The notes under the pieces are model-generated. The model did not search any database. It was not told the DNA's origin and was given only the letters and a program-made list of their open reading frames with translations. From NCBI RefSeq assembly GCF_058153355.1, contig NZ_CM177019.1: a stretch of 64,000 bases of DNA; one strand, given 5' to 3'. This document shows positions 1,230-5,724 of this stretch, in pieces (within the stretch, counting starts at the first letter, position 1; every line of letters begins with the position of its first letter). The translations under genes and the position numbers were made by a program.

Positions 1230-1374
1230 ATAGATGCCAGCAGTAAACTATAAGGGTAAGCGTCTTATCAGGACCGTCTGGCAAATTCCCGATGCTTTGG
1301 ACAAAGTATCCACCACTAAATTAATAGTGGGTGATAAAAATGTCAGATATACAAAAAAATGCCTCTCCGGGAAG

Positions 1375-2800
1375 TAATGCCGATCAGTTAAGGATCAGTT
1401 GACCGATCCAGTGGCTGTGTAAGAATCCGGAAACGCTCACTTGTTTCCGGATTTTTTTATGCACATTGGACAGGCTCTTGATCTGGTATCCCGTTACGAT
1501 TCTCTGCGTAACCCACTGACTTCTCTGGGGGATTACCTCGACCCCGAACTCATCTCTCGTTGCCTTGCCGAATCAGGTACTGTAACGCTACGCAAGCGCC
1601 GTCTTCCCCTCGAAATGATGGTCTGGTGTATTGTTGGCATGGCGCTTGAGCGTAAAGAACCTCTTCACCAGATTGTGAATCGCCTGGACATCATGCTGCC
1701 GGGCAATCGCCCCTTCGTTGCCCCCAGTGCCGTTATTCAGGCCCGCCAGCGCCTGGGAAGTGAGGCTGTCCGCCGCGTGTTCACGAAAACAGCGCAGCTC
1801 TGGCATAACGCCACGCCGCATCCGCACTGGTGCGGCCTGACCCTGCTGGCCATCGATGGTGTGTTCTGGCGCACACCGGATACACCAGAGAACGATGCAG
1901 CCTTCCCCCGCCAGACACATGCCGGGAACCCGGCGCTCTACCCGCAGGTCAAAATGGTCTGCCAGATGGAACTGACCAGCCATCTGCTGACGGCTGCAGC
2001 CTTCGGCACGATGAAGAACAGCGAAAATGAGCTTGCTGAGCAACTTATAGAACAAACCGGCGATAACACTCTGACGTTAATGGATAAAGGTTATTACTCA
2101 CTGGGACTGTTAAATGCCTGGAGCCTGGCGGGAGAACACCGCCACTGGATGATACCTCTCAGAAAGGGAGCGCAATATGAAGAGATCAGAAAACTGGGTA
2201 AAGGCGATCATCTGGTGAAGCTGAAAACCAGCCCGCAGGCACGAAAAAAGTGGCCGGGACTGGGAAATGAAGTGACAGCCCGCCTGCTGACCGTGACGCG
2301 CAAAGGAAAAGTCTGCCATCTGCTGACGTCGATGACGGACGCCATGCGCTTCCCCGGAGGAGAAATGGCGGATCTGTACAGTCATCGCTGGGAAATCGAA
2401 CTGGGATACAGGGAGATAAAACAGACGATGCAACTGAGCAGGCTGACGCTGAGAAGTAAAAAGCCGGAGCTTGTGGAGCAAGAGCTGTGGGGTGTCTTAC
2501 TGGCTTATAATCTGGTGAGATATCAGATGATTAAAATGGCGGAACATCTGAAAGGTTACTGGCCGAATCAACTGAGTTTCTCAGAATCATGCGGAATGGT
2601 GATGAGAATGCTGATGACATTGCAGGGCGCTTCACCGGGACGTATACCGGAGCTGATGCGCGATCTTGCAAGTATGGGACAACTTGTGAAATTACCGACA
2701 AGAAGGGAAAGGGCCTTCCCGAGAGTGGTAAAGGAGAGGCCCTGGAAATACCCCACAGCCCCGAAAAAGAGCCAGTCAGTTGCTTAACTGACTGGCATTA
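1375..2800 (+). mobile_element. IS4 copy 1 (1426 bp), nested inside the IS66-family element
   Basis: 18-bp imperfect terminal inverted repeats (taatgccgatcagttaag / reverse complement taatgccagtcagttaag). 12-bp target duplication ctctccgggaag at 1363..1374 and 2801..2812. Length matches IS4 exactly. Confidence 0.9.
1459..2787 (+). CDS. insG: IS4 transposase InsG (442 aa)
   Basis: ORF 1441..2787; product [36 protein letters not shown]... matches IS4 InsG as I recall it; start trimmed to the MHIGQ methionine. Confidence 0.9.
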
Positions 2801-3193
2801 CTCTCCGGGAAGGCCTAAAGGGTGCCTGAATTATCCTCCTGAATTCAAACAACGACTCATAGAAGCATCATTCCAGCCAGGTGTTTCAATTTCCAGACTG
2901 GCCCTGGACAATGGTATTAATGCCAATCTGTTGTTCAAATGGCGTCAGAAATGGCGGCAGGGGAAGATAAAATTGCCATCATCAGAATCAGGCAGAGAAT
3001 CTCAGTTAATTCCTGTCACTATTGATGCCCAACTCCCAACTGCTCCGGCTAATGAGCCACTGACCGCAAGACCGTCAGTAACACCGGAAATACACAGCAT
3101 CTCCTGTGAGATTACGTTCAGAAACGGCACCCTTCGGTTGAACGGGGCAGTGAATGAAAATCTGCTGTCCTTGCTTATACAGGAGCTGAGACG

Positions 3194-3541
3194 GTGATAT
3201 CTCTCCCTGCAGGTTCGCGTATCTGGCTGGTTGCAGGTATCACCGATATGCGAAATGGCTTTAACGGCCTGGCCTCAAAAGTTCAGAACGTCCTGAAGGA
3301 TGACCCGTTCTCCGGGCATCTGTTCATCTTCCGCGGACGCCGGGGTGACCAGATAAAAGTGTTGTGGGCTGACAGTGACGGACTGTGCCTCTTCACCAGA
3401 CGCCTGGAGCGGGGCCGCTTCGTCTGGCCGGTCACCCGTGACGGCAAGGTGCACCTTACTCCGGCCCAGTTATCCATGCTTCTTGAGGGCATCGACTGGA
3501 AACACCCGAAACGAACGGAACGCGCTGGCATCCGCATATAA
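3194..3541 (+). CDS. tnpB: IS66-family TnpB (orf2), 115 aa
   Basis: ORF 3194..3541; MISLPAGSRIWLVAGITDMRNGFNGLASKVQ... is typical of IS66 Orf2; ATGA overlap with the upstream tnpA stop. Confidence 0.85.
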   Translation: MISLPAGSRIWLVAGITDMRNGFNGLASKVQNVLKDDPFSGHLFIFRGRRGDQIKVLWADSDGLCLFTRRLERGRFVWPVTRDGKVHLTPAQLSMLLEGIDWKHPKRTERAGIRI

Positions 3542-3560
3542 CCCGTTGTAAAGTGAGGAT

Positions 3561-5132
3561 ATGGACACCTCACTTGCTCATGAGAATGCCCGCCTGCGGG
3601 CACTGTTGCAGACGCAACAGGACACCATCCGCCAGATGGCGAAATACAACCGCCTGCTCTCACAGCGGGTGGCGGCTTATGCTTCCGAAATCAACCGGCT
3701 GAAGGCGCTGGTTGCAAAACTGCAGCGCATGCAGTTCGGTAAAAGCTCAGAAAAACTTCGTGCAAAAACCGAACGGCAGATACAGGAAGCACAGGAGCGA
3801 ATCAGCGCTCTTCAGGAAGAAATGGCGGAAACGCTGGGTGAGCAATATGACCCGGTACTGCCATCTCCCCTGCGCCAGTCTTCAGCCCGTAAACCGTTAC
3901 CTGCCTCACTTCCCCGTGAAACCCGGGTCATCCGTCCGGAAGAGGAATGCTGCCCGGCCTGTGGTGGCGAACTCAGTTCTCTGGGATGTGATGTGTCAGA
4001 GCAACTGGAGCTTATCAGCAGCGCCTTTAAGGTTATCGAAACACAACGTCCGAAACTGGCCTGTTGCCGGTGCGACCATATCGTGCAGGCTCCGGTGCCT
4101 TCAAAACCCATTGCACGCAGTTATGCCGGAGCGGGGCTTCTGGCCCATGTTGTCGCTGGAAAATATGCAGACCATCTGCCGTTATACCGCCAGTCAGAAA
4201 TATACCGTCGTCAGGGCGTGGAGCTGAGCCGTGCCACACTGGGGCGCTGGACAGGTGCTGTTGCTGAACTGCTGGAACCGCTGTATGACATCCTGCGCCA
4301 GTATGTGCTGATGCCCGGTAAAGTCCATGCCGATGATATCCCCGTTCCGGTCCAGGAGCCGGGCAGCGGTAAAACAAGGACTGCCCGGCTGTGGGTCTAC
4401 GTTCGTGATGACCGTAACGCCGGTTCGGAAATGCCTCCGGCGGTCTGGTTCGCGTACAGCCCGGACCGGAAAGGTATCCATCCACAGAATCATCTGGCCG
4501 GTTACAGCGGAGTGCTTCAGGCCGATGCTTACGGTGGTTACCGGGCGTTGTACGAATCCGGCAGAATAACGGAAGCCGCATGTATGGCTCATGCCCGGAG
4601 AAAAATCCACGATGTGCATGCAAGAGTGCCCACCGACATCACCACGGAAGCCCTGCAGCGTATCGGTGAACTGTATGCCATCGAGGCAGAGGTCCGGGGC
4701 TGTTCAGCAGAACAGCGTCTGGCGGCAAGAAAAGCCAGAGCCGCGCCACTGATGCAGTCACTGTATGACTGGATACAGCAACAGATGAAAACACTGTCGC
4801 GTCACTCGGACACGGCAAAAGCGTTCGCATACCTGCTGAAACAGTGGGATGCACTGAACGTGTACTGCAGTAATGGCTGGGTGGAAATCGACAACAACAT
4901 CGCAGAGAACGCCTTACGGGGAGTGGCCGTAGGCCGGAAAAACTGGCTCTTCGCGGGTTCTGACAGCGGTGGTGAACATGCTGCGGTGTTGTACTCGCTG
5001 ATCGGCACATGCCGTCTGAACAATGTGGAGCCAGAAAAGTGGCTGCGTTACGTCATTGAACATATCCAGGACTGGCCGGCAAACCGGGTACGCGATCTGT
5101 TGCCCTGGAAAGTTGATCTGAGCTCTCAGTAA
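3561..5132 (+). CDS. tnpC: IS66-family transposase TnpC (orf3), 523 aa
   Basis: ORF 3561..5132; N-terminal coiled-coil/leucine-zipper region, CxxC pairs (CPACGG...CCRCDH) and a DDE-type core, as in IS66 transposases. Confidence 0.85.
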
Positions 5133-5724
5133 ATATCAATACGGTTCTGGCGAGCCGCTTACCTATAAGGAGCATTGTGAGTGCCTTATCCTTCTGAGTA
5201 GAAAATCATAGATAGGATAATCCTTAAAAATCACAAATAACTTAACTAATGCTTTGAGAATGATGACGGATCCGTCAGTAAGTCATCAATCGACAATCAC
5301 CACGCAATCATGCTTCTCTGACATTTTATCGGAGAAGCAATGCCTCTTTGTCTCAGTGCTATCCCCCCTTTTAAAGGGCAGATTTCAGTCGCCAATACAA
5401 CACATTTTTAAATACACTTTAACCTGGTTCATTATTACACATCTAAAACATCACAAAAATATCACTTCACACGCTATCGGAGAACATCATAACTTTTTAA
5501 AATCAGCGCTTTTTGATAGTTGTTAATGTTTTCCTTTACGATACTATCACTGCCCTTTTTTTATACACAAATATTACCGGGTGGAAATGAAAGGGAAGTT
5601 AAAGGTAATTATATCAGGAAGATATGACGCATTGTGTTTATTTCCGCGTAGAAGAAAATCCATTCCTGCTCTAATTCTCCGATTTGCAAAAATTTAGCGA
5701 AATAGATGAACAATAAGGAATGTT

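Follow-up and report, generated by a model that had tools for sequence, protein, structure and literature searches.

IS4 nested in the tnpA gene of an ISCro1-related IS66-family element on an E. coli chromosome

Introduction

Elements of the IS66 family are reportedly bounded by imperfect inverted repeats of about 20-30 bp that begin with 5'-GTAAGCG (ISfinder; Han et al. 2001). The family member to which the element described here is related, ISCro1, is 2699 bp long in E. coli (e.g. NZ_CP106924.1, L001 3395-6093); the two share the gene order tnpA-tnpB-tnpC and an 8-bp target duplication. In E. coli K-12 MG1655, IS4 has 18-bp inverted repeats and a 12-bp target duplication, and the choosiness of this element about its targets has long been known. 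Its target consensus is given as AAAN20TTT, for which a literature search returned nothing. For the IS4 family, target duplications of about 10 bp have been reported (PMC2266710).

Here we describe a 64,000-nucleotide stretch of an E. coli chromosome (hereafter the window) in which an IS66-family element related to ISCro1, at positions 1256-5162, is interrupted by a complete IS4. Such nesting of IS4 in an IS66-family element is an ordinary kind of event of an already known type. With high confidence we attribute it to two successive transpositions, of the IS66-family element and then of IS4, the second of which is likely to have cost the outer element its autonomous movement.

Results

The outer element begins at 1256 with GTAAGCGTCTTATCAGGACCGT and runs to CGCTTAC at 5162, both of its imperfect inverted repeats starting with the family's GTAAGCG motif (Table 1). 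Base 1256 is also where a 99.8% end-to-end match with an intact copy of the element begins. The first-pass annotation had reported the same 8-bp repeat on both sides, and the two copies are indeed identical; they are the only plus-strand occurrences of CTATAAGG in the 64-kb window. The intact copy is likewise flanked on both sides by an 8-bp repeat of its own, CACCGGAC. Exact abutting repeats would be expected by chance at about 1.5e-5 per end pair for 8 bp and about 6e-8 for the 12 bp around IS4, and neither pair can therefore be ascribed to chance. An Rfam scan of positions 1-8000 detected no RNA family.

Table 1. Features of the nested elements, in coordinates of the window.
Feature	Position	Strand	Remarks
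IS66-element target-site duplication, left copy, CTATAAGG, 8 bp	1248..1255	.	same as 5163-5170
IRL of IS66-family element, GTAAGCGTCTTATCAGGACCGTCTGG	1256..1281	+	19 of the first 26 bases agree with the right end in reverse complement
tnpA 5' stub	1340..1374	+	codons 1-11 and two bases of codon 12; from translation
IS4 target-site duplication, left copy, CTCTCCGGGAAG, 12 bp	1363..1374	.	same as 2801-2812; one copy in the intact element L011
IS4, complete, 1426 bp	1375..2800	+	IRL 1375-1392, IRR 2783-2800; same direction as tnpA-tnpB-tnpC
Hairpin followed by U-run	1421..1456	+	immediately internal to the left end of IS4, with the transposase ATG following directly; repeat search, ViennaRNA fold
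Intact gene for the 442-aa IS4 transposase (homologue of insG)	1459..2787	+	NCBIfam transpos_IS4_1
IS4 target-site duplication, right copy, CTCTCCGGGAAG	2801..2812	.	same as left copy
tnpA 3' part	2813..3197	+	last base of codon 12 to stop; whole conserved HTH_Tnp_1 domain
tnpB, IS66-family accessory protein, 115 aa, intact	3194..3541	+	NCBIfam IS66_TnpB 127.8 bits, cut-off 50
tnpC, IS66-family DDE transposase, 523 aa, intact	3561..5132	+	NCBIfam transpos_IS66 479.3 bits, cut-off 180
IRR of IS66-family element, ending ...GCCGCTTAC	5137..5162	-	last base of the end-to-end match with L011
IS66-element target-site duplication, right copy, CTATAAGG	5163..5170	.	same as left copy

The tnpA gene starts with the ATG at 1340 and, as proposed in the first-pass annotation, is split at codon 12, where IS4 enters behind the second base. 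In its present form the reading frame of the stub continues into IS4 and is closed by a stop behind residue 20 (MSDIQKNASPGSNADQLRIS). Deleting 1375-2812 in silico, that is IS4 and one repeat copy, gave a 2469-bp element with an in-frame TnpA of 139 aa, in agreement with the approximately 140 aa predicted. The reconstructed protein scores 88.9 bits with NCBIfam IS66_ISRel24_TnpA (cut-off 74), and Pfam HTH_Tnp_1 is on record for an identical protein of the intact copy. Downstream, the GTG start of tnpB overlaps the tnpA stop as GTGA (3194-3197), and tnpA, with its HTH, and tnpB precede tnpC as is usual in the IS66 family. Both the NCBIfam model and the Pfam domains LZ_Tnp_IS66, zf-IS66, DDE_Tnp_IS66 and DDE_Tnp_IS66_C, on record for a protein identical to the window TnpC, identify the latter as an IS66-type DDE transposase.

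The intact copy lies in E. coli GCA_047897835.1 (contig ABXYKR010000031.1, L011 5017-7485, 2469 bp) and aligns with the reconstruction over 2469/2469 positions at 99.8% identity and with 0 gaps; all 5 mismatches are synonymous changes in tnpB, and TnpA, TnpB and TnpC are identical. The earlier reading had been staked on an end-to-end match of the excision product to an IS66-family element and on identical flanking repeats, and it held on both counts. This uninterrupted copy is the same insertion sequence as that of the window, without IS4 and at another location. It lies on an F-like plasmid contig, beside a SPATE-type autotransporter gene. Full-length uninterrupted copies, 95.8% identical, also occur at other locations in E. 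albertii plasmids (e.g. NZ_CP070285.2). Since copies at different sites carry duplications of their own, this type of element appears to be mobile.

Among 5426 complete E. coli genomes, none matched the reconstructed element end to end; only bases 502-2469 were matched, by ISCro1. This result had the initial look of a failed reconstruction, which was ruled out by the intact copy, found by exact-protein look-up. A one-off chimera was also ruled out, the same tnpA-tnpB-tnpC junction being present in L004, L005, L011 and the E. albertii plasmids.

By sequence comparison, the element (2469 bp, versus 2699 bp for ISCro1) is a short-tnpA mosaic relative of ISCro1. Similarity to ISCro1 begins exactly at the tnpB start codon, from which tnpB, tnpC and the right inverted repeat share 96.8-97% DNA identity; TnpB is identical at 112/115 residues (97.4%) and TnpC at 514/523 (98.3%; RefSeq 'ISCro1 family transposase' WP_000381395.1). 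By contrast, the left 501 bp, comprising IRL and tnpA and amounting to 20% of the element, has no blastn match to ISCro1. The IRL differs from that of ISCro1, and TnpA, with 139 aa compared with 225 aa in ISCro1, has no counterpart of the additional N-terminal domain and is only 42% identical over the common part. GC content is 46% in this left-end/tnpA module versus 57% in the remainder of the element. The ISfinder naming rule combines more than 95% amino acid identity of the transposase with more than 90% DNA identity. TnpC lies above the first value, whereas across the whole element only bases 502-2469 align and bases 1-501 are unmatched; because the DNA threshold is missed over 20% of the element, a plain ISCro1 label is inappropriate.

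The first-pass annotation had correctly recognised the inner element as a complete 1426-bp IS4 with a 12-bp target repeat, both copies of which are identical. Its terminal inverted repeats are 18 bp long (16/18 matching), and its single ORF encodes a 442-aa transposase scoring 304.5 bits with transpos_IS4_1 (NCBIfam cut-off 115). The 12-bp duplication falls within the 11-13 bp, about one helix turn, of IS4, and CTCTCCGGGAAG has no further copy anywhere in the window besides the two flanking IS4. Equal in length to the IS4 of K-12 MG1655, the element shares 1423/1426 bases with it (99.8%), and its transposase differs from the likewise 442-aa K-12 InsG by 2 amino acid substitutions. A second IS4 in the window, at 33556-34981, is 100% identical to the nested one, and this identity points to recent IS4 activity in the lineage.

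The IS66-family element sits in a spacer, 26 bp downstream of an ArsP-type permease gene and with a yhiS-like gene on the other side, in the arsRBC / yhiS-like / slp region. An empty site with a single CTATAAGG is present in E. coli E200086, the closest genome (flanks 99.5% identical), as well as in MFDS1016424 and 20AR0354. The whole 64 kb is collinear with E200086 at about 99% identity, three IS insertions being the sole differences, which makes it unlikely that the window stems from Shigella. Two independent short-read assemblies reproduce both outer chromosome/IS66 junctions, a support that does not extend to the IS4/IS66 junctions: Logan contig L016 runs from 29 bp inside IRR into the flank at 100% identity, and short-read contig L017 ends 29 bp inside IRL.

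Discussion

We propose that a 2469-bp IS66-family element with tnpA (139 aa), tnpB and tnpC would have inserted into the chromosome first, duplicating CTATAAGG, and that IS4 would then have entered codon 12 of tnpA, duplicating the 12 bp CTCTCCGGGAAG. The first-pass annotation took the structure to fix this order. The structure does establish that IS4 entered an IS66 element; that the IS66 element came first at this locus is plausible but unproven by it, because the 8-bp repeat would look no different if a 3907-bp IS66::IS4 composite had been mobilised in trans.

Such a history, in which IS4 joined the IS66 element elsewhere and the 3907-bp composite then transposed as a unit with TnpA, TnpB and TnpC supplied by intact sister copies, seems unlikely to us, but it has several observations on its side. 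All that the 8-bp repeat shows is use of the outer inverted repeats, and the stop of contig L017 inside IRL is as expected for a left end present in multiple copies in the host, where trans-acting proteins may be available. Moreover, three different loci carry a 4137-bp composite of ISCro1 and IS4 (ISCro1::IS4), flanked in each case by a perfect 8-bp repeat particular to that locus, and the sequences of those in NCTC86 and pDLI.6n differ at only 2 bases. However, the left junction of the window, a short tnpA stub joined to IS4, is absent from the 5426 complete E. coli genomes, and the uninterrupted short-tnpA module, when searched for in E. coli genomes and PLSDB plasmids, had only unsplit or truncated matches. 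The ISCro1::IS4 elements mostly reflect independent hot-spot events rather than unit spread, and the identity of both IS4 copies in the window fits a recent local jump. Given these identical copies and the IS4 hot spot described below, insertion of IS4 in situ is the more likely course at this locus.

In the outer element, insertion of IS4 would have deprived tnpA of promoter, ribosome-binding site and start codon alike. Transcription begun at the IS66 promoter would probably end at the hairpin and U-run at the left end of IS4. This structure was not listed by the terminator scan, in which extension of the stem is suspected to have absorbed the T-run; folded separately, the RNA of 1415-1470 gave about -23.5 kcal/mol (ViennaRNA). 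In addition, tnpB would lose its translational coupling to tnpA, since its start lies in the tnpA stop (GTGA). In the work of Han et al. in 2001 on IS679, all three IS66 ORFs were reportedly required. With tnpA separated, the hairpin in place and coupling lost, the window copy is most likely unable to move on its own; the earlier description of the element as probably crippled is plausible though unproven. Mobilisation in trans is nevertheless possible, since tnpB, tnpC and the inverted repeats are intact and the host apparently holds further copies of the left end.

We likewise consider it unlikely that IS4 leaves the composite autonomous, with read-through or outward transcription driving tnpB, tnpC and perhaps an N-terminally altered TnpA. 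IS4 points in the same direction as tnpA-tnpB-tnpC, the palindrome at its right end (2771-2796) has no plus-strand T-run behind it, and the terminator scan found no plus-strand terminator-like structure downstream of the IS4 transposase gene; with this shared direction and no such terminator, read-through into tnpB and tnpC would be possible. An ORF at 2589..3197 begins within IS4, stays open in the tnpA frame to the tnpA stop, and so carries the full HTH-coding part in frame up to the GTGA shared with tnpB. Only 11 non-conserved TnpA residues would be lost, because the alignment with ISCro1 TnpA begins at residue 18, and a promoter-like site lies at 2973-3000. Against this, the 2 promoter-like matches found compare with 1.9 expected in shuffled sequence, no Shine-Dalgarno sequence is visible ahead of the ATG at 2589, and any fusion protein would have about 70 foreign residues. 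Loss of autonomous movement remains our preferred reading. Finally, an assembly artefact in which repeat copies were misjoined is highly improbable, for although both elements are multi-copy repeats at which short-read assemblies break, both insertions carry perfect target duplications of family-typical length (8 and 12 bp), and the 12-mer found twice here belongs to the IS66 element, whose intact copy has it once, an arrangement that a misjoin would not yield.

The position of IS4 within tnpA was compared with a target profile built from 19 unrelated non-IS66 sites, 16/19 of which come from one genome, Kosakonia oryziphila. In this profile, A occupies 13-15 of the 19 sites at each of positions -20, -18, -17 and -16 (9/19 at -19), G stands at -1 in 16/19, and AAA ending at -17 to -15 is found in 11/19 sites against a background of 5.8% (p = 1e-9). 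By this profile IS4 prefers an A-run ending 16 nt outside its left end, which is 3 nt outside the 12-bp duplication, followed by C-rich bases and a G at the junction. The window site has the A-run outside the duplication and ranks among the best 0.019% of positions in the window; landing at codon 12 would reflect an excellent match to this preference. The K-12 IS4 occupies another site, AAAcac/CAGAACCAAGAT/gcctaTTT, in which the A-run likewise lies 3 nt outside the duplication; unlike this site, the right target arm in the window has no T-run of the K-12 type.

In ISCro1-type tnpA the same target feature lies immediately ahead of the segment that encodes the HTH, and IS4 has struck it repeatedly in other strains. 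At the corresponding spot we found at least 8 separate IS4 insertions in other E. coli, in both orientations (9 genomes forward, 22 records reverse), each time 3 nt past an A7-9 run. The target duplications there are CCCCGGCGGCCC, CCCCGGCGGCCT, an 11-bp version and CTCCAGCGGCCT, and the IS4 haplotypes vary among copies. Most of these composites are independent hits, because haplotypes, orientations or duplication lengths mostly differ. For most of them, differences in orientation, duplication length, target allele and haplotype rule out a single event followed by spread as a unit; those of NCTC86 and pDLI.6n may share an origin through such spread. The stretch concerned consists of an A7-9 run (Lys/Asn codons) followed by a GC-rich 12-mer and has been hit in two unrelated tnpA types. 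On balance we favour the view, while allowing considerable doubt, that the part of tnpA just upstream of the HTH forms a natural IS4 hot spot, where one insertion sequence is recurrently knocked out by another, some of the composites perhaps being mobile as units. The literature searched contained no description of such a hot spot, which is not proof of novelty.

Several implications follow for annotation and for the biology of these elements. The region should be annotated as one interrupted IS66-family element plus an IS4 rather than as three unrelated transposase fragments. Nothing about the nested insertion, which is located in a spacer, bears directly on host physiology. The comparison with ISCro1 suggests that IS66-family elements can swap their left-end module, tnpA included, at the border between tnpA and tnpB, and the choosiness of IS4 would create a recurrent site for the insertion of one IS into another. 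Such a site might be used as a natural and selectively neutral reporter of IS4 activity, and for testing whether IS66 elements without tnpA in cis can be mobilised in trans.

Among known systems, the ISCro1::IS4 elements of NCTC86, MLI104K2, pDLI.6n, YL03, 23CRST047, pCFSAN029787_01 and pUMNF18_87 resemble the window in having IS4 within an IS66-family tnpA, shortly before the segment that encodes the HTH and 3 nt past an A7-9 run, with a duplication of 11-12 bp. Unlike the window, they carry the long, 225-aa type of tnpA and duplicate CCCCGGCGGCCC and variants of it, and their IS4 lies in both orientations at a site about 5 codons nearer the conserved domain. The recurrent targeting of IS66 tnpA by IS4 makes a modest addition to a known type of event.

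Structure of the nested insertion

Direct reading and scripted checks confirmed all coordinates of the structure described in the first-pass annotation, in which an IS66-family insertion sequence (IS) is interrupted within codon 12 of its tnpA gene by a complete IS4. The 8-bp and 12-bp target duplications are each identical pairs, and in silico deletion of 1375-2812 yields a 2469-bp element (hereafter the reconstruction) in which tnpA is in frame and encodes 139 aa, where about 140 had been claimed. An interval of 1438 bp now parts the rest of tnpA from its start, upstream region and 11 codons, leaving a stub that codes for a 20-aa peptide; the outer element retains intact tnpB and tnpC genes and an inverted repeat at either end. 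The observation is thereby upheld and its interpretation supported, with two reservations: in what order the events took place at this locus, and how far the IS66 copy is crippled.

Features of the nested insertion and of other regions in the window
Feature	Position	Strand	Remark
8-bp target duplication CTATAAGG	1248-1255 and 5163-5170	+	Sole two + strand copies in the window (scripted check)
Outer-element ends, GTAAGCG... reading inward	1256; reverse complement of 5162		19/26 first bases match between ends
Left inverted repeat (IRL) and tnpA	1256-3197		GC 46%; DNA unrelated to ISCro1
tnpA start	1340	+	IS4 enters after base 2 of codon 12
12-bp IS4 target duplication CTCTCCGGGAAG	1363-1374 and 2801-2812		No further copy in the window
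IS4, 1426 bp	1375-2800	+	Inverted repeats 16/18
Promoter-like site	1399-1426
Hairpin, then U-run	1421-1456		-23.5 kcal/mol
Outer element from tnpB start	3194-5162		GC 57%; 97% ISCro1
Second complete IS4	33556-34981	+	100% identical to the first; 12-bp duplication CTTCAGGAGGAG
Tandemly repeated ldr-type region (type I toxin genes)	63519-64000		Matches at least 4 repeat units in E200086, 93-96%

The interrupting IS4 differs from that of K-12 MG1655 at 3 of 1426 bases, and its intact transposase, with two amino acid changes relative to K-12, scores 304 bits against the NCBIfam profile transpos_IS4_1 (cut-off 115). In the spacer between yhjB and treF, the second IS4 sits at the yhjB 3' end; this site is empty in E200086, the closest complete E. 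coli genome.

The window is E. coli chromosome and runs from the end of the ars region through an ArsP-type permease gene, a yhiS-like gene, slp and dctR to the chu/shu heme genes, the hde, gad and mdtEF genes, treF, yhjB, and the bcs and ldr genes. In E200086 the flanks are 99.5% identical and the IS66 site is empty, with window 1-1255 and 5163-7000 abutting at an 8-bp overlap (...GCAGTAAA CTATAAGG AGCATTG...); the same empty site occurs in two further strains. The flank/IS66 junctions are reproduced by two Logan short-read assemblies, each ending 29 bp into an inverted repeat. Since assembly breaks inside the left repeat and the left end of ISCro1 differs, this suggests that the window's IS66 left end is multi-copy in the Logan-assembled genome. 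Two independent ISCro1 insertions were observed in the same permease/yhiS-like region of other E. coli genomes, one at about window 5310, 140 bp right of the window's insertion point (NZ_CP106924.1; L001, 3395-6093; duplication CGTAATCA), and one inside the permease gene, within window 216-1229 (NZ_CM132272.1; L002, 2270-4968; duplication ACATATAC).

The outer element as an ISCro1 mosaic

All three proteins of the outer element match IS66-family profiles (TnpC 479 bits, cut-off 180; TnpB 128, cut-off 50; TnpA 89, cut-off 74), and the GTGA overlap of tnpA and tnpB, the GTAAGCG ends and the 8-bp duplication are likewise those of this family. TnpC shares 98.3% and TnpB 97.4% identity with its ISCro1 counterpart, whereas the left 501 bp have no blastn match to ISCro1 and TnpA, at 139 aa against 225 aa, shares just 42% identity over the common C-terminal part. 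The likeness starts precisely at the tnpB start codon. We therefore regard the outer element as distinct from plain ISCro1 and mosaic in its sequence, which suggests a module exchange precisely at the tnpA/tnpB boundary. Because the same architecture is present at several loci, the element is an established variant in which the tnpA/IRL module has been swapped, and no accident of the window copy.

Megablast of the reconstruction against 5426 complete E. coli genomes returned no end-to-end match; bases 502-2469 alone matched elements annotated as ISCro1 (~97%), and the left 501 bp (IRL and tnpA) matched rare, mostly truncated copies (92-96%). An exact-sequence look-up of the window TnpC retrieved an uninterrupted copy from E. 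coli contig ABXYKR010000031.1 (GCA_047897835.1), which aligns with the reconstruction over 2469/2469 positions with 5 mismatches and 0 gaps, encodes identical TnpA (139 aa), TnpB and TnpC, and has its own 8-bp duplication CACCGGAC. This copy, together with full-length copies on Escherichia albertii plasmids (95.8%), bears out the expectation that excision of IS4 would restore an IS66-family member recognisable from end to end.

Order of events

The duplicated 12-mer belongs to IS66 and is present once in the intact element, so it is certain that IS4 entered the IS66 element. To this extent the proposed order, IS66 first and IS4 second, holds, but the prior presence of IS66 at this particular locus is not strictly fixed by it. 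We consider it very probable that IS4 inserted in situ, with IS66 already in place, and improbable that IS66::IS4 arrived as one unit. Movement as a unit is conceivable, since three loci carry a 4137-bp ISCro1::IS4 composite and a separate 8-bp duplication flanks each of them. Insertion in situ is favoured by differences in IS4 haplotype or orientation among most such composites, by the absence of the window's own left IS4/tnpA junction from the 5426 complete E. coli genomes, by the lack of split matches to the uninterrupted short-tnpA module among E. coli genomes and plasmids, and by the identity of the two window IS4 copies.

The three composites, in NCTC86 (L013, 1228-5364), MLI104K2 (L038, 2228-6364) and pDLI.6n (L039, 2228-6364, inside traD), are flanked by the perfect duplications AGTTATTC, CCAGTATG and AAATAAAC, respectively, and any of them may have moved as a unit; the IS4 haplotype of NCTC86 and pDLI.6n differs from that of MLI104K2.

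Consequences for the IS66 copy

The hairpin and U-run near the left end of IS4 lie between the promoter-like site and the IS4 ATG. Transcripts entering IS4 from outside would fold at this hairpin, which would either stop them or mask the IS4 start, and given this placement those from the IS66 promoter should end there. The tnpB start lies inside the tnpA stop codon, so that translational coupling of tnpB to tnpA is probable, and Han et al. in 2001 reportedly found all three ORFs to be needed for IS679 transposition. The predicted block to transcripts, the probable coupling and the need for three ORFs together make it most likely that the window copy is non-autonomous. The suggestion that IS4 probably cripples the element is plausible, but three features speak against a complete knock-out: IS4 is co-oriented with tnpA-tnpB-tnpC, a terminator scan found no + strand terminator 3' of the IS4 transposase gene insG, and the tnpA frame stays open to the tnpA stop in an ORF that starts at 2589. 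Read-through may therefore still express tnpB and tnpC, and sister copies may complement the element.

A recurrent IS4 target in IS66-family tnpA

In many E. coli, a junction query placed IS4 within the long, ISCro1-type form of tnpA (9 genomes in forward and 22 records in reverse orientation). In all inspected cases IS4 lies 3 nt after an A7-9 run, directly 5' of the tnpA stretch that codes for the HTH; duplications are CCCCGGCGGCCC, CCCCGGCGGCCT, an 11-bp version and CTCCAGCGGCCT, and IS4 haplotypes vary among copies. From the combinations of orientation, duplication, target allele and IS4 haplotype, we distinguish at least eight independent IS4 events in ISCro1-type tnpA, to which the window's event is additional. 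At the same hot spot, plasmid ECdb0033_p4 carries a 1242-bp IS4 derivative (L009, 2501-3742) with IRR-type (right inverted repeat) sequence at both ends, an IS4 that has been rearranged internally or inverted in part.

The IS4 target consensus is AAA-N20-TTT, which the K-12 site fits. To see whether the tnpA hits follow a general IS4 preference, we profiled 19 independent non-IS66 IS4 left-end junctions (the K-12 site, the window's second IS4, one from Photorhabdus and 16 from Kosakonia oryziphila), and the resulting profile agrees with this consensus. A occupies each of positions -20, -18, -17 and -16 at 13-15 of the 19 sites and position -19 at nine, positions -14 to -12 are C-rich, and G stands at -1 in 16/19. 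AAA ending at -17 to -15 occurs in 11/19 of these junctions, compared with 5.8% of positions in the window (binomial p = 1e-9). Scored with the log-odds profile, the window tnpA site falls in the top 0.019% of all window positions, both strands counted, and the ISCro1 sites in the top 0.3-1.8%. The profile is also in line with the striking specificity in both target arms of some IS4-subgroup members (PMC2266710). Multi-copy, selectively neutral IS copies as targets should further favour survival of such insertions.

Among the retrieved loci, at least 16 contigs of the Kosakonia oryziphila REICA_142 draft (L022-L037) carry an IS4 left end, mostly near a contig end, with 40 bases identical to E. 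coli IS4, which suggests an IS4 expansion outside Escherichia. A 265-bp contig of Methylobacterium mesophilicum NBRC 15688 (NZ_BPQU01000128.1) has the exact left junction of the single K-12 IS4 with the same 40 flanking bases, and is most likely E. coli K-12 contamination of that assembly.

It is common in E. coli and Shigella for one insertion sequence to sit inside another, and the families of both partners are well known. New here are this nested instance and the recognition of its outer element as a short-tnpA ISCro1 mosaic, by comparison with genomes and plasmids. We found no description of a recurrent IS4 hot spot in IS66-family tnpA in the literature searched; unsurprising in principle, it is a modest, checkable addition for IS specialists. 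The window site has the same arrangement as the ISCro1 sites, AAAAAAA-TGC-CTCTCCGGGAAG, but lies about five codons farther from the conserved domain.
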